Shown: positions 6,716 to 52,804, counted from the stretch's first letter. The stretch: 59,200 nucleotides of DNA from Patescibacteria group bacterium (GCA_034678605.1 JAXDBQ010000020.1:1-59200); one strand, 5' to 3'. A program made the numbers and translations. The notes: generated by a model not told the origin, from the sequence alone.

Positions 6716-8320
6716 CTAGTTGGCCAATGATTTCAAATTTTCTTGGAACTTGGCTTCCAAATCGGCATGAATATCCTTATGCTGTACGTCGTCATAATCT
6801 TTGTTCAGCGATTTGACCATGCCGCAAGTTTCTTTTTCCAAACAAAAGCCAACGCAATGGCACTTTGGGACAATGTGGCGTCCTAGCCAATCCAATCCCT
6901 TTTCCTGCAACAAATTTTTGATCGCGGTCACTTCTTTGATGCTGGAACGGCGCAATTCTTCTTCGGCCGTGGAGCAGATCCGCAATGGATAATAACCGGC
7001 GATCAAATTGTATAAATTGTAATCCTGCGCCATATCTAATTTTAAACCGCGCGGCACTACAAAGATCGCGTCTCGTTCTTTGATCCCCATTTCCACTAAT
7101 TTCGCGTAAGTTTCCAGCGAATCAAGTGCGCGCTCAAGATATTCATGCAAGAATTCCCGGTCCGCGGCGATCGCGGGCGGCACCGAGAAAACCGCATCGA
7201 TCTCGTCAACCGCCGCGTGATTTAATTTTTTCTCGGCAATCCGCTTCTTATGCCTTGCCAAAACTTCCCGCGCCCGCGCCGCGCTCCAATAAACCGAATC
7301 CACGACCATCGACACGGTGCGATGGCGCTTTTTATCGCCCCAAACGCGCCAGGCCGACGACGAAAATATCTTGATGTTGGCCGCGGTCAAGTAGTCGCGG
7401 GCGATCTGCTGGCGCGCTTCCAGCAATTTTGGCCATTTTTCTCGCAAATCCAATCCACTTTGAACCGCTTGACCGATCTTTTGCTCCAAATCGCGCAATC
7501 GCTTTTTTAATCCCTCTGTGACCAAAAAATCCGCGGAAATAATCTTGAAATTATCGCCCGATTTAACCGTGGGCGCCAATTCACGCGCCAAATTAGTTTG
7601 GCACGGATCCTTGAAAATATTGGGATAGGGGTAATTATTGCGGGGCGCCGCCAGGCGCGTGGCATAAAGCAGATCCACGCCGCAATCGCGCAAATTATTT
7701 TCGATAGTTGAGATCAGAATTCCCACATCCTCGGGCATCCATTCTTTTTGCGCCTCATATTCGCGTTTTAAAGTCACCAACGATTCAACCGAAAACTGAA
7801 TTATGCCGGTGCCATAGATTCCATATTGCAACACCTTGCTGGCCTCGTCCTTGCCCACGCCGTTGGCCAGCAAATGATTCAAGACCTCGATATTGCGTTC
7901 CGATGTTTTGCGGTAGAGCGCCAAAGAATCGGGCATGGCCGCGATCCCCTCGGGCGCCACAATGTCATCGGCGGTGGTGTCGGTGCGCCGGCCCGAAGCC
8001 ATGATCGCCGACGCGAACACGATTCCGGTGAGCGCCGAATCGATGAATTTGCTGGCCTCATAGGAAAACGAGAATGCCGGAGTGGTGGCCATCGACGCGT
8101 GGCCCTTGAGCGATGATTGGCGCAAGATCGCCGCCACTTTTTTATCCAAATCCTTGCCGCTGTCCCGCAGTTCGCGCAAAATCTCGTCCACCGATTTGCC
8201 GCTATAGGTGAGCAAACCCGAAAGCGCCACCAATTGCTGGGGCGAAATTGTGCCGGTGTCATCAACCCATTCCGGCGTGATTCCCAAAAATTTAACCTTA
8301 ATATCCTTGGTCGAAAACAT
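6716..8320 (-). CDS. thyX: FAD-dependent thymidylate synthase, tandem two-domain form
   Basis: GHAS motif, RHRT motif, LRICSTAEEELR (cf. LRxxxxAQxEIR). About twice the usual ThyX length; flanked by dcd and tmk. Confidence 0.8.
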   Translation of the reverse strand: MFSTKDIKVKFLGITPEWVDDTGTISPQQLVALSGLLTYSGKSVDEILRELRDSGKDLDKKVAAILRQSSLKGHASMATTPAFSFSYEASKFIDSALTGIVFASAIMASGRRTDTTADDIVAPEGIAAMPDSLALYRKTSERNIEVLNHLLANGVGKDEASKVLQYGIYGTGIIQFSVESLVTLKREYEAQKEWMPEDVGILISTIENNLRDCGVDLLYATRLAAPRNNYPYPNIFKDPCQTNLARELAPTVKSGDNFKIISADFLVTEGLKKRLRDLEQKIGQAVQSGLDLREKWPKLLEARQQIARDYLTAANIKIFSSSAWRVWGDKKRHRTVSMVVDSVYWSAARAREVLARHKKRIAEKKLNHAAVDEIDAVFSVPPAIAADREFLHEYLERALDSLETYAKLVEMGIKERDAIFVVPRGLKLDMAQDYNLYNLIAGYYPLRICSTAEEELRRSSIKEVTAIKNLLQEKGLDWLGRHIVPKCHCVGFCLEKETCGMVKSLNKDYDDVQHKDIHADLEAKFQENLKSLAN

Positions 8321-9245: not shown

Positions 9246-9497
9246 GTGATTGAATTGGCATCATTTCTTATTAGACAAGGCAACTTTAAAACCGATATGG
9301 ACTTAAATAGACAAGATTTAGAAACGTTATTCAGGGCATGCTTCCCCGATAAAAACCTGCCGCTCAACATAATAACAAAGCAAATGGATAAATGGAATTT
9401 TGCTTTCTTAGATATAACGACACAAATGGCGGTCGGAATTGTTACTTTGACGGATGAAGAAGCGGAAGCTTTCCAGCCTCCCACAACTAATCAATGA
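9246..9497 (+). CDS. Hypothetical 83-aa protein with its own promoter and terminator
   Basis: TTGACA at 9210 with an AT-rich -10 region, GTG start, and hairpin AAAGCCCCG...CGGGGCTTT at about 9522-9557. Confidence 0.55.
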   Translation: MIELASFLIRQGNFKTDMDLNRQDLETLFRACFPDKNLPLNIITKQMDKWNFAFLDITTQMAVGIVTLTDEEAEAFQPPTTNQ

Positions 9498-9561
9498 CCC
9501 CAAAATGGTCTTTTTTTATTCAAAAGCCCCGCGCGCCATTCGGCGCACGGGGCTTTAGGTT

Positions 9562-42364: not shown

Positions 42365-42454
42365 CGCTTTTTTTTATTCATTCCTCATAATACTTCGGGG
42401 CTATACCTGATGTAGTTTATTATAAAATTGTTTTCAATCTTTTTTTAGTAATTT

Positions 42455-42583
42455 TTATTTCCGCAGACCGCCGAGCTTGATGATGGTTTTCATAACGCTG
42501 TCGGGGTTAAGCGACATGGTTTCGATGCCTTCGCGCATGATGAATTCGGCAAATTCGGGATAATCGCTGGGCGCTTGGCCGCA
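42455..42583 (-). pseudogene. Orphan duplicate of the last 42 codons plus stop of ppsA
   Basis: 120/129 nt identical to 43460-43588; 8 of 9 differences are synonymous. Confidence 0.95.
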
Positions 42584-42660: not shown

Positions 42661-43218
42661 TTATTTGCTTTCCAATTTCAAATATTCGATCTCGCTTCTG
42701 ATGTCTTCAAAAAAGATATGATGCGATTTATGGATTTCCCATGCGACATTCCTTTCGAAACAAGCGAAAATCAACCGCTTTCCGTTGAGAATAACATCTT
42801 TTTTCAATCCAATAAAGTCGCTATCGCTGCTCACAAGCAGCACCGCGTCAATTTTATCCAAACTTCTTATCGCGGCGCAAGTAATTTCCACATCAAAATT
42901 GCATTTATATTTGAATTTAGATTTGGCGCTGTCCAAATAAATCTTTTTAAGCAGCTTTTCGATAATTTCAAAACCCGATTTTTCAATTCTGTCTTTGATC
43001 AATACATTTTTATCATAAGCGGCTTTCTCCAGCGGCATTCCCAAATAATACTTTGCGAATTTTACATTAAAATGCTTCTGGCAAAATATTAAGAACTTGC
43101 CCCAATCGATCCGCCAACCCGCGCTTTTCTGCGAATAAAACAAATTCGCCTCGTCAACAAAAATCCCAACACATTTCCCTTTATATTCGTCTAAAATTTT
43201 GTTAGCTTTGAAATTCAT
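42661..43218 (-). CDS. NYN (LabA/DUF88, PIN-like) domain RNase
   Basis: IFVDEANLFY, KCNFDVEI, LVSSDSDF, FFEDI. Confidence 0.9.
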   Translation of the reverse strand: MNFKANKILDEYKGKCVGIFVDEANLFYSQKSAGWRIDWGKFLIFCQKHFNVKFAKYYLGMPLEKAAYDKNVLIKDRIEKSGFEIIEKLLKKIYLDSAKSKFKYKCNFDVEITCAAIRSLDKIDAVLLVSSDSDFIGLKKDVILNGKRLIFACFERNVAWEIHKSHHIFFEDIRSEIEYLKLESK

Positions 43219-43441: not shown

Positions 43442-43459
43442 ATCAATAAAATTCTTTTT

Positions 43460-45853
43460 TTATTTCTGCAAGCCGCCCAACTTGATGATGGTTTTCATGA
43501 CGCTGTCGGGGTTCAATGACATGGTTTCGATGCCTTCGCGCATGATGAATTCGGCAAATTCGGGATAATCGCTGGGCGCTTGGCCGCAGATGCCGATGTA
43601 CTTGCCCCGGACCTTGCAGGCCGCGATCGCCTGTTTGACCAAAATTTTCACCGCCTCGTTGTTCTCACTGGCAATATGAGTCAATTGGCCGGCATCGCGA
43701 TCCAAACCAAGCGTTAATTGCGTGAGGTCGTTGGAACCGATCGACATGCCGTCAAAAATATCCAAGAATTGATCGGCCAAGATCACATTTGAGGGAATTT
43801 CGCACATCACCATAATCTTTAACCCATTCTGACCCGATTCGAGGCCGTTTTTTTTCATCACTTCAATCACTTTTTTGCCTTCCTCCACGGTGCGGCAAAA
43901 CGGAATCATCACCCACACATTATCCAGCCCCATCTGTTCTCTCACTTTTTTGATCGCCGCGCATTCCAGCGCGAATGCCGGCGCAAAGCGCGGGTCATAA
44001 TAGCGCGACGCGCCGCGCCAACCGATCATGGGATTTGATTCTTCGGGCTCGTATTCGCTCCCTCCCAGCAACGCGCGGTATTCATTGGTTTTGAAATCCG
44101 AAAACCGCACGATGATGTGCTTGGGATAAAACGCCGCCGCGATCGTGGCAATGCCCTCGGCAAGCTTGTCCACGAAAAATTCTTTTTTATCTTTGTATCC
44201 GAAAGTGATCTGCTCAATTTGCGCTTTCAGTTTTTTGTCTTTCAACTTGCCAAAATTTATCAGCGCCAGCGGATGCACCTTAACTTGATCGGCAAAAATA
44301 AATTCCACCCGCGCCAAACCCACGCCATCATTGGGCAAAAACGAGGCCTTAAACGCCGCTTCGGGCGTGCCCACGTTGAGCATAATCTTTGTCGGCAACT
44401 CCGGAATCATACCTAAATCATATTCCTTTTTTTCATAAGGAATCTTGCCCGCGTAAACCCGGCCTTCCAGCCCTTGGGTGCAATCCGCCGTGGCCATCAC
44501 GCCGTTTTTTAAAACTTTACTGCCATCACGCGTGCCCACAATGCAGGGCGTGCCCAATTCGCGCGACACGATCGCCGCATGGCAGGTTTTGGTGCCCTCA
44601 TCGGTCACGATCGCCGACGCGATGCGCATAATCGGCACCCAATCCGGGTCAGTCATGGTGGTTACTAAAATTTCACCGGCCTTGAACTGATTGATCTGTT
44701 TGACATTGGGAATAATGTGAATTTTCCCCTGGCCAATCTTGTGGCCCACGGCAATGCCGGCAACCAACGGCTTGGCGCTGGTTTTGACTTCGTATTCTTC
44801 GTAAGTATTTTGAGCAACCTTACCGGCATAGATGGTTTCCGGCCGCGCCTGCACAATAAACAATTCGCCGGTTTTGCCATCTTTGGCCCATTCGATATCC
44901 TGCGGCCCATGGTAGTGCTCCTCGATGATCACCCCCCACTTAGCCAATTGTTCGGCTTCTTTATCGGTCAACGAAAACCGTGCCCGGTCTTTGGGCAAAA
45001 CCTTCACTTCCTTCAAACCGACCTTCTTGTCAAAAATGTATTTGATATCCTTGTTGCCCAATGTTTTGGAAATGATCGCAGTTTTACCTGATTTTAAGGA
45101 AGGTTTAAAAACATAGAACTGGTCGGCCACCACATGGCCTTTCACGATCATTTCACCCGCGCCAAAAATCGAATTGATCAAAACCGCGTTGCGAAATCCG
45201 GTTTCCGTGTCCAAAGTGAACATGATGCCCGCCGAGGCCAGATCCGAGCGCACCATTTTCATCACTCCCACCGACAGCGCCACTTTGAGCGTGTCAAAGC
45301 CCTTTTCGACCCGATAAACGATGGCTCGCTCCAAAAACAGCGACGAAATGCATTTTTTCACCGCGTCCAGCAATTCCAAAGGCGTATCGATATTCAAATA
45401 GGTTTCATGCGCCCCGGCAAACGACGCGCCGGCCAAATCCTCGGCCGTGGCCGACGACCGAACCGCCACATTCACATTCTTGGTTTTGTAATAGGCCGAC
45501 AATTCCTTGTAGGCCGCCAAAATTTCTTTTTTGAAATCCGGCGGAAACTCGCCCTTCAAAACCAAATTGCGCGCCAAAGTGCTGGCTTTTTTGAGTTTAG
45601 CTAAATTGGAAGCATCCAAATCTTTGAAGATCGGTTCCAATTTTTTATCAATGCCGTTGTGCCGCAAATAGCGCCAATAGGCCGTGCTGGTGGTAATAAA
45701 CCCGTTGGGGATCGGCACGCCCTTTTCGCCCAATTGCGAAAACATCTCGCCCAGCGATCCGTTTTTTCCCCCGACCAGCTCCACGTCCTTTTTGGTCACT
45801 TCCTTGAACCACGCCACATTCCTCTCGTTTATGTTTTGATTTTCTGTTTCCAT
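43460..45853 (-). CDS. ppsA: Phosphoenolpyruvate synthase (pyruvate, water dikinase)
   Basis: VGGKNGSLGEM, VAVRSSATAEDLAGASFAG, QARPET, TCHAAIVSRELG (phospho-His), GVGLARVEF, SIGSNDLTQL, GICGQAPSD. Start taken at METENQ. Confidence 0.96.
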   Translation of the reverse strand: METENQNINERNVAWFKEVTKKDVELVGGKNGSLGEMFSQLGEKGVPIPNGFITTSTAYWRYLRHNGIDKKLEPIFKDLDASNLAKLKKASTLARNLVLKGEFPPDFKKEILAAYKELSAYYKTKNVNVAVRSSATAEDLAGASFAGAHETYLNIDTPLELLDAVKKCISSLFLERAIVYRVEKGFDTLKVALSVGVMKMVRSDLASAGIMFTLDTETGFRNAVLINSIFGAGEMIVKGHVVADQFYVFKPSLKSGKTAIISKTLGNKDIKYIFDKKVGLKEVKVLPKDRARFSLTDKEAEQLAKWGVIIEEHYHGPQDIEWAKDGKTGELFIVQARPETIYAGKVAQNTYEEYEVKTSAKPLVAGIAVGHKIGQGKIHIIPNVKQINQFKAGEILVTTMTDPDWVPIMRIASAIVTDEGTKTCHAAIVSRELGTPCIVGTRDGSKVLKNGVMATADCTQGLEGRVYAGKIPYEKKEYDLGMIPELPTKIMLNVGTPEAAFKASFLPNDGVGLARVEFIFADQVKVHPLALINFGKLKDKKLKAQIEQITFGYKDKKEFFVDKLAEGIATIAAAFYPKHIIVRFSDFKTNEYRALLGGSEYEPEESNPMIGWRGASRYYDPRFAPAFALECAAIKKVREQMGLDNVWVMIPFCRTVEEGKKVIEVMKKNGLESGQNGLKIMVMCEIPSNVILADQFLDIFDGMSIGSNDLTQLTLGLDRDAGQLTHIASENNEAVKILVKQAIAACKVRGKYIGICGQAPSDYPEFAEFIMREGIETMSLNPDSVMKTIIKLGGLQK

Positions 45854-48043: not shown

Positions 48044-48085
48044 ATCTTAAATCTTAAATCTTAAATCTTAAATCTTAAATCTTAA
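48044..48085. repeat. Heptamer array (ATCTTAA)x6, reverse complement of the miaB array unit
   Basis: Six perfect copies; contains the acs stop codon. Confidence 0.9.
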
Positions 48086-50001
48086 ATCGGATTCACCGCA
48101 TTCTTGATGCTTTCGACGCTTTCGGGATTGGCCAGGGTGGATAGGTCGCCCAATTCCTCCTTGGTGAACGCTTTGCGCAAAATACGGCGCATTATCTTGC
48201 CCGAACGGGTTTTGGGCAGGTCGCTCACGATAAAAACCTCGTGCGGCGTGGCGATCGGCCCGATGCCGGACCTAATCGCGGCGATTACTTTCTCCTTCAA
48301 TCCGGCGGTATCGGCCGGGTTTTTGGCCACCACGAACGCCACCGGCACTTCGCCCTTGATCTCGTCCACCACGCCCACCACCGCGCATTCGGCCACGGCC
48401 GGTTCATGACAAGCCGCGCTTTCCAACTCACCCGTGGTCAACCGATGGCCGGCCACTTTGATCATGTCATCGGCCCGACCCACCACGCGCAACAAGCCAT
48501 GCTTGTCGCGCACGCCCAAATCACCGGAAAAATAATATTTGTTTTGGTATTGGCTCCAATAAGTATCAACAAATTTTTGCTCATTGCCCCAAACCCCGTG
48601 CAGCAAACTAGGGCAAAACGGCGGCACCAGCACCACGCTGCCTTCCTGGCCGGCTTTGCAAACTTTGCCGGCCTCGTCAACAACTCTTATCCGGATTCCC
48701 GGCAACGGCAAGCCCGTATGCGCCGGTTTGAACGGCCCGATGCCCGGCAAAGACGTCGCAATTATCCCCCCGGTTTCGGTCTGCCACCAGGTATCAAGGA
48801 TGGGGCACCGCTTTTTGCCCACTTCGGCAAAATACCAATTCCAGGCCTTTTCGCTGATCGGCTCGCCCACTGAGCCCAAAACCTCCAGCGTCTTCATCGA
48901 ATAGGGCTTCAAGATCTCCGTGCCGTTCTTCATGAACATCCGGATGGCCGTGGGCGCGGTATAGAACACGGTTACCCCGTATTTGTCGATCACATTGGCC
49001 CAGCGGTCCGGATTGGGATAATCCGGCAAGCCCTCAAACATAATAAACGTCGCGCCATTCAAAAGCGGCCCATAACAAGAATAAGTGTGCCCGGTGACCC
49101 AGCCGATATCAGCCGTGGACCAGAAGATATCATCGTCGGTGAGATCGAATATCCATTTATCGCTGGCATAGGCCGATACCATATAACCGCCGCATGTATG
49201 CAAGGCACCCTTGGGCTTGCCCGTGGATCCGCTGGTGTACAGAATGAACATCGGGTCCTCGGCATCCATGGTTACGGCCGCGCATTCGTCGGATTCGCCG
49301 CGAATTATCTGATCATACCAAATATCGCGCGCTTCGGTCCAGGCAACCTCGTTTCCGGCATGCTTAATGACCACGGTTTTTTGCACCCCGGTATCAATCA
49401 AACCCTCATCGGCCTGTTTTTTCAAATCCACGACTTTGCCCCGCCGGAAATACCCGTCGCAAGTAATCAACACCTTGGCGCCGGCATCCTGCAAACGCAC
49501 TTGCAGCGCCTGGGCGGAAAATGCCGAAAACACCACCGAATGCACCGCGCCGATGCGCGCGCAAGCAAGCATCGAAACTACCACTTCGGGAATCATCGGC
49601 AAGTACACTCCCACCCGATCGCCTTTCTTGACCCCTAATTTTTTGAGCGCGTTGGCGAATTTGTTCACGCGGCGATAAAGATCATAATAAGTGATCATTT
49701 GCGCCGGCTGAGCCGAATCATCGGCCTCCCAAATGATGGCCACCTTGTTTTTGCGTGTGCTTAAATGCCGATCCAAGCAATTCTCGGTGATGTTTAATTT
49801 TCCGCCCGCAAACCATTTGATATGCGGCGGATTATCAACATAGGCCTTGTTCCATTTTTTACGCCAAAGTAATTCCTTGGCCGCCGCCTCCCAAAACTTC
49901 ACCGGATTTTTCTCGGCAACCGTGTAAACGCTTTTCGCCTTCAACCACGCGCGCTTTTTTGCCACCGCGTCCGGCCAATAAAGTTCCCCTTTTTTTATCA
50001 T
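48082..50001 (-). CDS. acs: Acetate--CoA ligase (AMP-forming)
   Basis: GGKLNITENCLDRH, FILYTSGSTGKPKG, WSTADIGWVTGHTY, GSVGEPI, DTWWQTETG, LPKTRSGKIMRR. Confidence 0.96.
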   Translation of the reverse strand: MIKKGELYWPDAVAKKRAWLKAKSVYTVAEKNPVKFWEAAAKELLWRKKWNKAYVDNPPHIKWFAGGKLNITENCLDRHLSTRKNKVAIIWEADDSAQPAQMITYYDLYRRVNKFANALKKLGVKKGDRVGVYLPMIPEVVVSMLACARIGAVHSVVFSAFSAQALQVRLQDAGAKVLITCDGYFRRGKVVDLKKQADEGLIDTGVQKTVVIKHAGNEVAWTEARDIWYDQIIRGESDECAAVTMDAEDPMFILYTSGSTGKPKGALHTCGGYMVSAYASDKWIFDLTDDDIFWSTADIGWVTGHTYSCYGPLLNGATFIMFEGLPDYPNPDRWANVIDKYGVTVFYTAPTAIRMFMKNGTEILKPYSMKTLEVLGSVGEPISEKAWNWYFAEVGKKRCPILDTWWQTETGGIIATSLPGIGPFKPAHTGLPLPGIRIRVVDEAGKVCKAGQEGSVVLVPPFCPSLLHGVWGNEQKFVDTYWSQYQNKYYFSGDLGVRDKHGLLRVVGRADDMIKVAGHRLTTGELESAACHEPAVAECAVVGVVDEIKGEVPVAFVVAKNPADTAGLKEKVIAAIRSGIGPIATPHEVFIVSDLPKTRSGKIMRRILRKAFTKEELGDLSTLANPESVESIKNAVNPI

Positions 50002-50222
50002 AGTTTTTTATTTTTTTAATAATGATTTCCCTCAAAAATTATTCAATTATTCCAAATAAGGCACACATCCCCATTGACCCGGCCGCATTGTGCGCCCCTC
50101 GGAGCAAAAAATCTCGCCTCTTTGATCAATAAAAATAATATAAACCGCGAATATAACAAAAACAACCATTAAATAAATCAATATATTTTTCGTGCTTATT
50201 TTTTTCCATTTTTAAATTATTT

Positions 50223-51227
50223 TTAATTCCCGGATTCCAAATAATTTCGCACCGCGCGGTCAAAATCGGAAACAAATTTTTTGTCCGCGGCGGCTTTGAA
50301 TTTTGAAAACTCGGTATCCGCTTTTATCTGCGCCTCTTCCATGCTCACATTGCCCGCGTTTTTCAAAACCCCTTTGCCCAAAATCTTTAAATACTCATCC
50401 AATTTAACGATCCAATCAGCCATTTTCATCGGATTTTGGCTCTGCGCCTGGATTTCCGCGAAAGAAAGATACGCGTCAACAATGCGATTAAGATTTTGAA
50501 GTTCGTTTTCCTTTAAATAATTTTTAGCGATATAAATGTCGCGTTTGATGAAATTGTCTCCGGGAAAATTCGTCAATCCCATATTTTGCTTTCCGCCATC
50601 CGCTCTAAACGCGATAATTTCGGACGCGGTTTTGCCGGTTACCGCGTAATGCATTTTATTCTGCACGGTTTTAAAAAAAAGATCGGTGATTTCGGCATCA
50701 TTGCGATAGTCAATGCTGGTGGCGTAAATATCGGTTACTTTTTGATATAACATCCGCTCGCTGGAACGAATATCGCGGATTCTTTGCAACAACTCCTCAA
50801 AATACCTTGACCTATGCCCGCCTTGCTTCAACCGCGCGTCGTCGAGCGCAAACCCTTTTATCATGTATTCTTTCAACCGCTCGATCGCCCATTGGCGGAA
50901 TATCAACCCACGCTCGGAATTAACCCGATAGCCCACCGCGATAATCGCATCCAGACTGTAAAATTCGATTTCGCGCCCAACATCTCTGCTACCTTCTCTC
51001 TGAACTATTCGGAATTTCCGAATAGTTGAATTTTGCTCTAATTCTCCTGTTTTAAATATATTTGACAAATGTTCATTAATGGTCGGCACATTAACATCAA
51101 AAAGCTGGGCCATCAATTTTTGCGACAGCCAAATATTTTCATCCTCAAGCCGCACTTCGACGCGCCTGGCGCCATCCGGCGTTTTATATATAATTATTTG
51201 ATTTTTCCCCTCTCTTTCTTCTGCCAT
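50223..51227 (-). CDS. RhuM-family (virulence RhuM) protein
   Basis: IIIYKT, NIWLSQKLMAQLF, INEHLSNIF, YSLDAIIAVGYRVNS, FRQWA, GFALDDARLK, RIRDIRSSER. Confidence 0.92.
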   Translation of the reverse strand: MAEEREGKNQIIIYKTPDGARRVEVRLEDENIWLSQKLMAQLFDVNVPTINEHLSNIFKTGELEQNSTIRKFRIVQREGSRDVGREIEFYSLDAIIAVGYRVNSERGLIFRQWAIERLKEYMIKGFALDDARLKQGGHRSRYFEELLQRIRDIRSSERMLYQKVTDIYATSIDYRNDAEITDLFFKTVQNKMHYAVTGKTASEIIAFRADGGKQNMGLTNFPGDNFIKRDIYIAKNYLKENELQNLNRIVDAYLSFAEIQAQSQNPMKMADWIVKLDEYLKILGKGVLKNAGNVSMEEAQIKADTEFSKFKAAADKKFVSDFDRAVRNYLESGN

Positions 51228-51265
51228 GTATTAATTACAAAATAATTTCAAATAAATATTTTTAA

Positions 51266-51328
51266 TTCAACCACGCTCGTTTTTTTTGCCGCCGCGTCCG
51301 GCCAATAAAGTTCCCCTTTTTTTATCAT
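51266..51328 (-). pseudogene. Orphan duplicate of the first ~20 codons of acs (frameshifted)
   Basis: Matches 49940-50001 with 3 substitutions and one extra A; lies 14 nt after the gapA stop. Confidence 0.93.
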
Positions 51329-51342
51329 AAATTTAATTTAAA

Positions 51343-52365
51343 TTAAATTTTATTGCCGACAAATTCGGCGAATTCGGCCAGACGGGTGGAATAACCCCAT
51401 TCGTTGTCATACCAGGCACCCACTTTCACCAAATTGCCGTTGGCCATGGTCAAGCCCGAGTCCACAACCGACGAATAGCCGCTGCCGATGTAGTCGCTGG
51501 AAACCAGCGGCGCGGTTTCGAACGCCATGATGCCTTTGAGCGGCTTTTTTTGGCTGGCCTTTTCCAAGGCCGCGTTCACTTCCTCGACGGTTGTTTCCCG
51601 CTCCAGCTCGCACACCAAATCCACGATCGAGCCGGTGGGCACGGGCACGCGCAAGGCGATGCCGTCCAATTTGCCTTTTAACTCGGGAATGACCTTGCCG
51701 ATAGTCTTGGCCGCGCCGGTGCTTGTCGGGATGATGTTCAATCCGGCCGCCCGGGAACGGCGCAAATCCTTGTGCGGCAAATCAAGGATTTTTTGATCGT
51801 TGGTATAGGCGTGCACCGTGATCATAAAACCTTTGACAATACCGAAATTTTCATTCAAAACCTTGGCCACCGGCGCCAAGCAATTGGTGGTGCAGGAGCC
51901 CATGTCCACAATATTATCCTTGGCCGAGTCATAATTGTCGGCGTTGATGCCCGGCAAATAGGACGGAATTCTATCGGCATCTTTTGCCGGTGCCGAGATC
52001 ACCACTTTTTTGCCGCCCGCGATCAAATGCTTGGCCGCGTCGTCATATTTGGTGAACCTGCCGGTACATTCCAAAACCACATCCACGCCATATTTTTTCC
52101 ACGGCAAATCATGCGGTTCGGCAAGCGCGGCCACCGCGACTCGCGTCATGGATTTCTTGCCGCGAATTACAATTTCTTTTTCCGCCGCCTCGATTTCCTT
52201 GTCCCAACGGCCATAAATCGAATCATATTTCAATAAATGTGCCAGCACTTTGGGTTCGGTAAGATCGTTTACCGCCACCATATCCAATTCCGGATGCTTG
52301 TCAATGATTATTTTCAAAACATGCCGGCCGATCCGGCCAAGGCCATTGATCGCGATTTTAACCAT
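51343..52365 (-). CDS. gapA: Glyceraldehyde-3-phosphate dehydrogenase, type I
   Basis: IAINGLGRIGR, VLECTG, SCTTNCLAP, TVHAYT, NIIPTSTGAAK, RVPVPTGS, WYDNEWGY. Confidence 0.98.
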   Translation of the reverse strand: MVKIAINGLGRIGRHVLKIIIDKHPELDMVAVNDLTEPKVLAHLLKYDSIYGRWDKEIEAAEKEIVIRGKKSMTRVAVAALAEPHDLPWKKYGVDVVLECTGRFTKYDDAAKHLIAGGKKVVISAPAKDADRIPSYLPGINADNYDSAKDNIVDMGSCTTNCLAPVAKVLNENFGIVKGFMITVHAYTNDQKILDLPHKDLRRSRAAGLNIIPTSTGAAKTIGKVIPELKGKLDGIALRVPVPTGSIVDLVCELERETTVEEVNAALEKASQKKPLKGIMAFETAPLVSSDYIGSGYSSVVDSGLTMANGNLVKVGAWYDNEWGYSTRLAEFAEFVGNKI

Positions 52366-52520
52366 AAAAATTAAATTCGAATATCGAATATCGAAATCCG
52401 AAACAATATCAAATTTCGAATTTTCAAAAACAAAAAATAAACCAAAATTCCGTTTTGAAAATTTAAATTTTGAAAATTCGTGCTTGTTTTGGATTTCGAT
52501 ATTCGTGCTTCGAATTTTTT
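52366..52520. repeat. Palindromic TTCGAAT/TTCGATA-type heptamer element
   Basis: AAATTCGAATATCGAATATCGAAATCCGAAAC...GGATTTCGATATTCGTGCTTCGAATTT; a related element lies at about 10745-10905. Confidence 0.75.
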
Positions 52521-52573: not shown

Positions 52574-52804
52574 CTACTTTATCCCCAGTGTTTGATCGAT
52601 TTCGGCTTTGTCGAATCCCACGATGATCTTGCCGTCGATATTGGCCACCGGCACGCCCATCTGGCCGGACAATTCGATCATTTCGTCGCGCTCGGTTTCG
52701 TTTTCCGAAACATCGACATCGACAAATTCGATCTTTTTGCTTTTCAAATAGTCCTTAAGCGTCACGCAATAAGGGCAATAAGGCGTGGAATAAATTTTTA
52801 TCAT
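52574..52804 (-). CDS. Glutaredoxin (NrdH-like)
   Basis: YSTPYCPYC, SGQMGVP, IIVGFD. Confidence 0.92.
   Translation of the reverse strand: MIKIYSTPYCPYCVTLKDYLKSKKIEFVDVDVSENETERDEMIELSGQMGVPVANIDGKIIVGFDKAEIDQTLGIK

Follow-up and report, generated by a model that had tools for sequence, protein, structure and literature searches.

Genes for restriction-modification (R-M) and other defence functions have been found in bacteria between long direct repeats that vary in length and are unique in the genome, with no mobility genes alongside, an arrangement known as insertion with long target duplication (Nobusato et al., 2000, Gene 259:99; Furuta, Abe and Kobayashi, 2010, NAR 38:2428, PMC2853133). 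The repeats often span the start or stop codon of the target gene, which itself stays intact, and most of the species concerned are naturally competent (PMC2853133). Two recombination processes can leave a related footprint. Single crossovers of circular molecules that carry part of a target have produced duplications of 109-950 bp of the homologous locus in Escherichia coli (Amarir-Bouhram et al., 2011; PMC3240628), and homology-facilitated illegitimate recombination during transformation has been invoked for the orphan gene ends in effector/immunity arrays of the type VI secretion system (PMC5361080). Here we describe a locus of this general kind in a window of 59,200 nucleotides from a Patescibacteria group bacterium (GCA_034678605.1, JAXDBQ010000020.1:1-59200), in which a RhuM-family gene separates gapA from acs and the first bases of acs are present on both sides of it. 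We read it as an insertion with long target duplication and give about even weight to its formation by homology-anchored recombination of imported DNA.

A duplicated acs start at the gapA-acs junction

The genes of the region all lie on the minus strand, as do the features described below, in the order glutaredoxin (grx), gapA, orphan acs start, RhuM, spacer, acs and a DUF6922/AbiEii pair. The gapA gene (52365..51343) ends with a TAA stop at 51345-51343. After a further 14 nt comes the first copy of a direct repeat (51266..51329), which corresponds to positions -1 to +64 of acs with one extra A; the second copy (49940..50002) is the start of the intact acs gene. Alignment of 49940-50002 with 51266-51329 gives 60 identities in 64 positions and one 1-nt indel (BLAST, E = 3.6e-20). 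The repeat starts one base before the ATG and is identical in both copies from -1 to +37, a core of 38 nt. Beyond the core the copies differ by a conservative GTG/GCG change (Val/Ala), by the synonymous pairs AAG/AAA and CGC/CGA, and by the extra A. In the orphan copy the ATG at 51328 opens MIKKGELYWPDAAAKK, and the distal part of this type of copy contains GGCGGCAAAAAAAACGAGC. The reading frame shifts at a run of eight A residues (A8), where intact acs has AAAAAAG, and owing to this +1 frameshift the orphan copy is dead as a start of acs. What can still be translated from it is an open reading frame (ORF) of 26 codons (51248..51328; MIKKGELYWPDAAAKKTSVVELKIFI*), which terminates at 51248, 20 nt ahead of the RhuM ATG.

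The relation of the orphan to acs is specific. A profile of acs 5′ ends matched it over positions 1-70 (nhmmer, E = 8e-14) as the sole extra hit in the genome, and genome-wide searches with BLAST and nhmmer revealed no third copy of the repeat in 1.0 Mb. With two copies only, it is therefore not one of the many dispersed intergenic repeats of this genome. Its length of 64 nt lies above the >30 bp by which flanking direct repeats were recognized by Furuta et al. (2010). The repeat is real and more than a chance resemblance. An initial annotation, made from the sequence alone, had described an acs-like start 14 nt past the gapA stop, identical to acs over its first 37 nt and then broken by a +1 slip, with two synonymous changes, one Val/Ala change and a spacer of about 220 nt before the intact gene. 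The alignment agrees with this description throughout, the spacer measuring 221 nt.

A search of 40 relatives for acs was followed by a reading of the gene's surroundings. Eleven of the other 12 genomes of the genus have grx, gapA and acs in this order and on one strand; in G005, the remaining one, a contig start cuts the region. The arrangement recurs in the two genomes of the sister genus and in several more families of the order. Between gapA and acs there are 48 nt in G008 and G009, which have a single acs start and represent the empty site at the level of the genus, and 142 nt in G003, the sister species; two distant relatives have ∼20-30 nt there. Relatives that lack RhuM thus do carry acs right behind gapA, and the synteny across the genus, the sister genus and other families bears out the proposal of the initial annotation that an older gapA-acs junction had been interrupted. 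The ancestral junction was split and the 5′ end of its downstream gene was duplicated.

The same junction has received other genes elsewhere. Within the genus the gapA-to-acs gap spans 48 nt to 2.6 kb and its cargo differs between genomes, with at least six different cargo states. RhuM is found in G000 (the genome described here) and G005, an NYN-nuclease gene in G004 and G012, a membrane Cys-rich protein together with NYN in G007 and G011, a 543-aa Cys-rich protein in G010, and two membrane proteins in G001. In G006 (L026) an NYN gene has been cut down to its two ends, the first ∼55 nt and the last ∼42 nt, an internal-deletion scar from which it follows that cargo is lost as well as gained. 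Across the genus, the gapA-acs junction is a hot spot at which varied cargo has been inserted. One relative, an NCBI contig of a metagenome-assembled genome (L083), is 94.8% identical over 2.9 kb (window 54200-51343), and the homology ends exactly at the gapA stop; beyond it, in place of the orphan acs start and RhuM, lie two unrelated ORFs, a 94-aa Cys-rich membrane ORF starting ATGATTAAA and then a 157-aa membrane ORF. The presence of other cargo in a relative of ∼95% identity indicates that turnover at the junction is fast. A co-occurring strain seen in the public runs X5 and X6 is identical through RhuM and the orphan acs start and ∼8.6% diverged in gapA between 51370 and 51709; the divergence begins 27 nt inside gapA, and the strain is thus a mosaic of homologous recombination with its end point beside the insert.

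The sequence comes from contig C20 of a metagenome bin (G000, 1.0 Mb in 50 contigs) of an ultra-small bacterium of the candidate phyla radiation (CPR), and a bin of 50 contigs invites the suspicion of an assembly artefact, that is, a chimeric join through the shared repeat in a mixed population. Two further points could be read in this way: contigs built at k = 31 break at the repeat, and one such contig from X5 joins acs straight to gapA. An artefact is nevertheless extremely improbable. Contig ends in the bin overlap by 127 nt, which indicates assembly at k = 127, and a chimeric join is disfavored because the 64-nt repeat is shorter than this word length. Both junctions, for which a lack of read support would have refuted the initial annotation by its own terms, are crossed by independent ENA assemblies made at k119 and k127 in two other projects: contigs L084-L086 span grx, gapA, the orphan acs start and RhuM with 98% identity, and contig L082 spans the end of RhuM, the spacer and acs with 100% identity. 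Contigs of k-mers that match the insert with zero differences were obtained from runs of at least seven studies, dated 2016 to 2025, and in the deepest run (X1) the depth of the insert (20) equals that of the flanks (22-24). The X5 contig, which joins 49964 to 51292, was considered as an empty site and rejected. Its gapA side comes from a diverged allele, and this allele breaks at the repeat in X6; as the 38-nt identical core exceeds the word length of 31, the joined path holds no word that is absent from the occupied form, and it is uninformative.

The insert, its cargo and its occurrence in other lineages

The insert measures 1.26 kb, well below 20 kb, and consists of RhuM and an ORF of 44 codons, with no mobility gene. 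The RhuM gene (50223..51227) encodes 334 aa and matches PF13310 (E = 2e-106) with 355 bits against a cut-off of 33.7, over profile positions 1-248 of 252. It also matches the PADLOC phage-defence candidate PDC-S05 (E = 1e-138). RhuM often accompanies R-M loci, and from its neighborhood to R-M and PrrC loci and from fusions to Doc domains it has been proposed to be a protein-modifying toxin (PMC3710099). The present gene is described as a putative toxin or defence gene. A sequence search of the PDB found no solved relative of RhuM. The AlphaFold model, built with 54 homologues, has a mean predicted local distance difference test score (pLDDT) of 51 and reaches fair confidence only for residues 30-110, which, as judged from the modeled secondary structure, look like a winged helix. 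RhuM-like proteins of 65-70% identity are encoded by solitary genes in many CPR groups, in unrelated contexts, and no flanking repeats were found around the more distant RhuM genes in other CPR contigs.

Behind RhuM lies the AT-rich spacer of 221 nt (50002..50222), which ends in an A-rich leader ahead of the acs ATG. It contains the 44-codon ORF (50047..50181), of membrane/Cys type, in which a hydrophobic helix is followed by a tail with Cys. A variant strain has the same ORF uninterrupted (I>V, I>L, S>P, TAA>TGA), and it resembles small Cys-rich membrane ORFs of the same island in relatives. The insert is foreign in composition, with a G+C content of 39.5% (43% in RhuM, 29% in the spacer) against 52%-54% in gapA and acs.

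RhuM stands right before acs in at least two more lineages. G005 has a frameshifted RhuM, and L056, a metagenome contig of the same species, has an intact one that is 87% identical; in both, the gene ends 6-7 nt before the acs ATG and no orphan copy lies upstream. In a third species (L057-L060) the order is gapA, small ORF, NYN, small ORF, acs-start remnant, RhuM (86% identical) and a gene for a secreted protein. The remnant in L057 matches positions 1-63 of the acs profile (E = 3e-8) and forms a 34-codon ORF that ends 8 nt ahead of RhuM. DNA similarity among the RhuM copies covers only the gene, ∼25 nt upstream and 15-30 nt downstream (51252 to ∼50193-50208). A perfect 25-nt direct repeat was also noticed in L057 (1885-1909 and 3297-3321). 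It covers -1 to +24 of a start codon (MRINKKII), heads two secreted-protein ORFs of 87 and 306 aa, and brackets the 87-aa ORF, the acs-start remnant and RhuM.

Such a distribution could in principle stem from an old RhuM that descended vertically and was lost many times through recombination between the repeats, the orphan copy having been kept similar to acs by gene conversion or by a role as an upstream ORF (uORF) in RhuM translation. RhuM does precede acs both in the basal G005/L056 and in the nested G000; the orphan is open as an ORF of 26 codons in G000 and 34 codons in L057, 20 and 8 nt before the RhuM ATG; and direct repeats would permit clean loss of the insert. The acs tree, however, places G000 as sister to G003 within a clade that has no RhuM at the junction, with G005/L056 basal in the genus. 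The ten genomes between them have no RhuM at the gapA-acs junction, and at least five independent losses would be needed on this tree. Synonymous divergence (dS) of RhuM is also about half that of the flanking genes (0.68 versus 1.44 for acs, and 0.95 versus 2.07 for gapA), the flank values being near saturation. Moreover, the ∼95% relative already has different cargo at the junction, G005/L056 have no orphan copy, and the frameshifted state of the orphan speaks against its peptide being under selection. Vertical descent of this kind is very unlikely. The patchy presence of RhuM, its halved dS and its low G+C content lead us to favor transfer between lineages into the same site over descent with many losses.

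The product of gapA is a type I glyceraldehyde-3-phosphate dehydrogenase (PF00044 and PF02800) that scores 418 bits with the equivalog model TIGR01534, above the cut-off of 367. The intact acs (48082..50001) encodes an acetate--CoA ligase of 639 aa (PF16177, PF00501 and PF13193) that scores 857 bits with the equivalog model TIGR02188, above the cut-off of 725, and the glutaredoxin gene lies at 52804..52574. Upstream of gapA, at 52373-52517, there is an imperfect inverted repeat with arms of 56 nt, made of short words; in metagenomes it reaches 10-30 times the k-mer depth of the neighboring genes and thus belongs to a widespread repeat family. Close homologues of window proteins carry Minisyncoccales or Patescibacteria labels in public records, and the stretch occurs in public runs from anaerobic digesters, wastewater and sludge.

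Parallel events and the proposed route of insertion

A genome-wide screen for unique local direct repeats returned twelve pairs, several of them with an anatomy like that at acs. At ppsA, the last 129 nt of the gene plus 3 nt are repeated past an NYN-domain gene (43218..42661), giving a repeat of 132 nt (42452-42583 and 43457-43588). Its first 71 nt are identical; the other 61 nt contain nine differences, eight of which are synonymous, including three Leu switches between TTG and CTN. On contig C8, 81 nt at the start of pilD (-9 to +72), which encodes a prepilin peptidase, are repeated (7842-7922 and 9427-9506), with the repeat upstream of an inserted gene for a 449-aa protein that, as read from its sequence, is probably of the ATPase type. 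The view of the initial annotation that the acs event is a 5′-end version of the ppsA event is upheld: the two are of the same class, and pilD provides a second 5′ case. In G001 (L022, contig C14) an inserted gene for a 223-aa membrane protein is followed by a repeat of the final 49 nt of gapA, stop codon included. The second copy stands ∼700 nt downstream, and its first 22 nt are identical, after which five of the six changed codons are synonymous.

Orphan pilD starts were found upstream of pilD in other members of the genus as well, in G004, in G005 with the same ATPase cargo, and in G006 with an NYN pseudogene as cargo. Where the orphan copies were compared (G000, G004 and G006), each is closest to the pilD of its own genome, with identities of 89%, 81% and 96%, respectively, against 64%-76% between genomes. 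Breakpoints and filler differ between genomes, and the orphan copies end at different codons in four genomes. The possibility that an orphan copy is carried unchanged from species to species with its cassette was considered and rejected, each orphan being closest to the gene of its own genome.

Other unique repeat pairs in the genome bracket diverse genes, whose identities are judged from their sequences. A 41-nt pair on C46 (3409-6412) encloses a C5-methyltransferase-like gene and a partner, a 32-nt pair on C2 (9498-10847) a transporter-like membrane-protein gene, and a 49-nt pair on C28 (3139-6389) a block of four ORFs that includes an NYN-like gene.

The route that we consider to have about even chances starts from foreign DNA, with a lone RhuM gene and the small membrane-protein ORF, that would have entered the tight gapA-acs junction. 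The donor may have been a related bacterium in which RhuM already stood just upstream of acs, such that the fragment brought the first bases of acs with it. The carried copy would pair with the resident acs start, and general (RecA-type) recombination would integrate the fragment. This could take place through a single crossover of a circularized fragment (Campbell-type) or through one homologous and one illegitimate end, as in homology-facilitated illegitimate recombination, and in either case no dedicated integrase or transposase would be at work. The homology segment would then be present twice, one copy stranded by gapA and the other heading the intact acs. Where intergenic gaps are only 14-50 nt, insertions that regenerate a gene end would be the only ones to persist, and survivorship of this sort would explain why the repeat runs from the start codon inward. 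The route, the donor and the choice of the native copy are what we infer from these footprints. In acs, ppsA and gapA of G001 the repeat copies look like two functional alleles rather than a gene and its decayed duplicate. The synonymous differences, the acs remnant beside RhuM in two species and the reuse of gene ends fit an incoming fragment that carries an anchor. Genes for ComEC, DprA and components of type IV pili are present in the genome.

A dedicated site-specific system would offer a different account, in which the copies are attL and attR, attP mimics the 5′ end of acs, and the integrase has been lost by deletion or acts in trans. A core free of differences (38 nt here, 71 nt at ppsA) followed by a diverged, coding-equivalent arm has the classic appearance of attL/attR, the same cargo occupies the same site in three lineages, and the genome does possess one tyrosine and two large serine recombinases. 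These are, however, on other contigs (C7, C8 and C9); no recombinase was found in the 1.26-kb insert, and searches of the 59-kb contig for two recombinase families gave no match. The acs, ppsA and pilD repeats share no motif and no fixed crossover core, their lengths are 64, 132 and 81 nt, and breakpoints vary between loci and genomes. The lack of a common motif together with the variable lengths and breakpoints makes a dedicated site-specific system unlikely, and the distant RhuM genes in other CPR contigs, which have no flanking repeats, point in the same direction. We regard site-specific integration as improbable.

Homology-anchored recombination of imported DNA has to be weighed with more care against duplication of the target in situ, either by illegitimate joining at both ends or through a staggered break, with the joints just before the acs ATG and 64 nt inside the gene. 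Later decay of the orphan and homologous import of a diverged acs allele, ending within the repeat, would then account for the differences between the copies. Such a course would agree with the orphan pilD copies, each nearest to its own genome's gene and with differing breakpoints and filler, and with the absence of differences from the first 38 nt of the acs repeat. One end of the repeat lies in the tiny gap between genes, which is where survival of gene-preserving outcomes alone would place it; recombination tracts do end next to the insert in X5/X6; and the class itself was described with no homology arm (PMC2853133). On the other hand, divergence that is synonymous in eight of nine differences at ppsA and in five of six changed codons at gapA of G001 would demand a second recombination at several loci, and the position of RhuM right before acs in three lineages, along with the acs remnant of L057, would be left unexplained. 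Duplication in situ is therefore held as a tentative possibility, on the unlikely side.

Several results weigh against import of an anchored fragment. No conspecific empty site, donor or circular form was seen; all conspecific contigs recovered, through exact proteins and members of 90% clusters in public assemblies, carry the insert. A sliding-window comparison of acs with 11 relatives showed no clear imported 5′ tract. In the acs repeat, with its three substitutions and one indel, neither the clustering of the differences (none in the first 37 nt, four in the last 27) nor their synonymous bias reaches significance by itself. The likeness of each orphan pilD to its own genome's gene and the differing breakpoints fit duplication in situ as well as they fit near-conspecific donors. 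A single crossover alone also leaves the identity of the proximal part unexplained, and a conversion tract or an identical donor segment must be assumed. Three substitutions, with neither a donor nor a strain with an empty site for comparison, are too few to tell the routes apart. Scans of JGI metagenome contigs for the empty-site pattern and for the 37-nt core gave 0 hits each.

The initial annotation went further and assigned to the intact acs an incoming start and leader. As to the leader, the claim holds in that the 221 nt ahead of acs are insert DNA by position, the gene now standing behind RhuM and a small ORF, and the spacer shows no similarity to the gapA-acs spacers of relatives or to the 3′ end of gapA. 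The last ∼12 nt before the ATG (ATAAAAAACT-ATG), however, match the A-rich acs leader of several relatives, and as the two copies agree throughout their first 37 nt the native start codon region is indistinguishable from its counterpart. Whether the start codon region of acs is incoming or native cannot be told, and on this point the initial annotation overreaches. A scan of the stretch for promoters and terminators performed no better than one of shuffled sequence, and none of the RNA runs searched holds the stretch.

A broader model may be entertained, which we consider doubtful. The 5′ ends of acs and pilD and the 3′ ends of ppsA and gapA might be used as portable addresses by conflict cassettes that consist of a single gene and have no recombinase (RhuM, NYN nuclease, AAA-ATPase, AbiE), and these would home by means of the carried gene-end copy after DNA uptake and renew the orphan each time. 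The orphan acs start might in addition have been co-opted as a uORF (26 codons; 34 in L057) that lies 8-20 nt before RhuM and lends it a housekeeping translation start. If true, this would amount to self-perpetuating, integrase-independent mobility and to the chief path of flux for accessory genes in genomes of this tiny size.

Comparison with described insertions

Events of the kind seen at acs have been described before; the novelty lies in the lineage, in the cargo and in the density of parallel events. The ways in which extremely compact, transposon-poor CPR genomes acquire accessory and defence genes are poorly understood, and the mechanism that produces insertions with long target duplication has been a standing question since 2000. 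The acs locus adds a clean 5′-end example with cargo other than R-M genes. The genus also supplies many natural replicates, with at least six cargo states, orphan ends of different ages and allele-like differences between copies, and these make the recombination route testable. For annotation, short ORFs that mimic the start or end of a neighboring housekeeping gene should be taken as insertion scars and not as genes or sequencing errors.

The locus shares with insertions with long target duplication an insert of a few kilobases or less with no mobility gene, a unique direct repeat of more than 30 bp that is single in relatives at the level of the genus and spans the start or stop codon of the neighbor, the low G+C content of the insert, and competence machinery in the host. 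In contrast to that class, the cargo is a lone RhuM with no R-M genes, and the class therefore fits by mechanism and not by cargo. The host is also of the CPR/Patescibacteria, one junction has been used repeatedly by varied cargo within a genus, the differences between the copies are allele-like and synonymous, and no clean conspecific empty site was found.

Homology-facilitated illegitimate recombination is reportedly to be credited to de Vries and Wackernagel in 2002 and to Prudhomme et al. in the same year. In this process, as in single crossover, one conserved gene segment anchors non-homologous cargo and orphan ends pile up at hot spots, which is the picture at the gapA-acs junction. Those cases concern laboratory model bacteria, whereas the route proposed here is drawn from sequence footprints in an uncultured lineage.

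The SXT/R391 family of integrative and conjugative elements, of ∼100 kb, occupies the 5′ end of prfC by means of its own tyrosine integrase and a short, defined core; integration at prfC is said to have been reported by Hochhut and Waldor in 1999. As at acs, the 5′ end of a housekeeping gene is used, an orphan fragment stays on one side, and the gene continues behind upstream sequence derived from the element. The insert described here, in contrast, is 1.26 kb long and has no recombinase. At the 3′ end of icd in E. coli, e14 and phage 21 provide an alternative gene end with mainly synonymous changes and leave the original as a downstream pseudogene, a parallel to the sister events at ppsA and at gapA of G001. 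Those are integrase-mediated prophages at a 3′ end, unlike the acs event at a 5′ end. Integron cassettes, finally, are likewise small, mostly single-gene and promoter-poor units that gather at one site ahead of a fixed point, but at the gapA-acs junction there is no attC/attI and no IntI, and the bracketing repeats are copies of the target gene.

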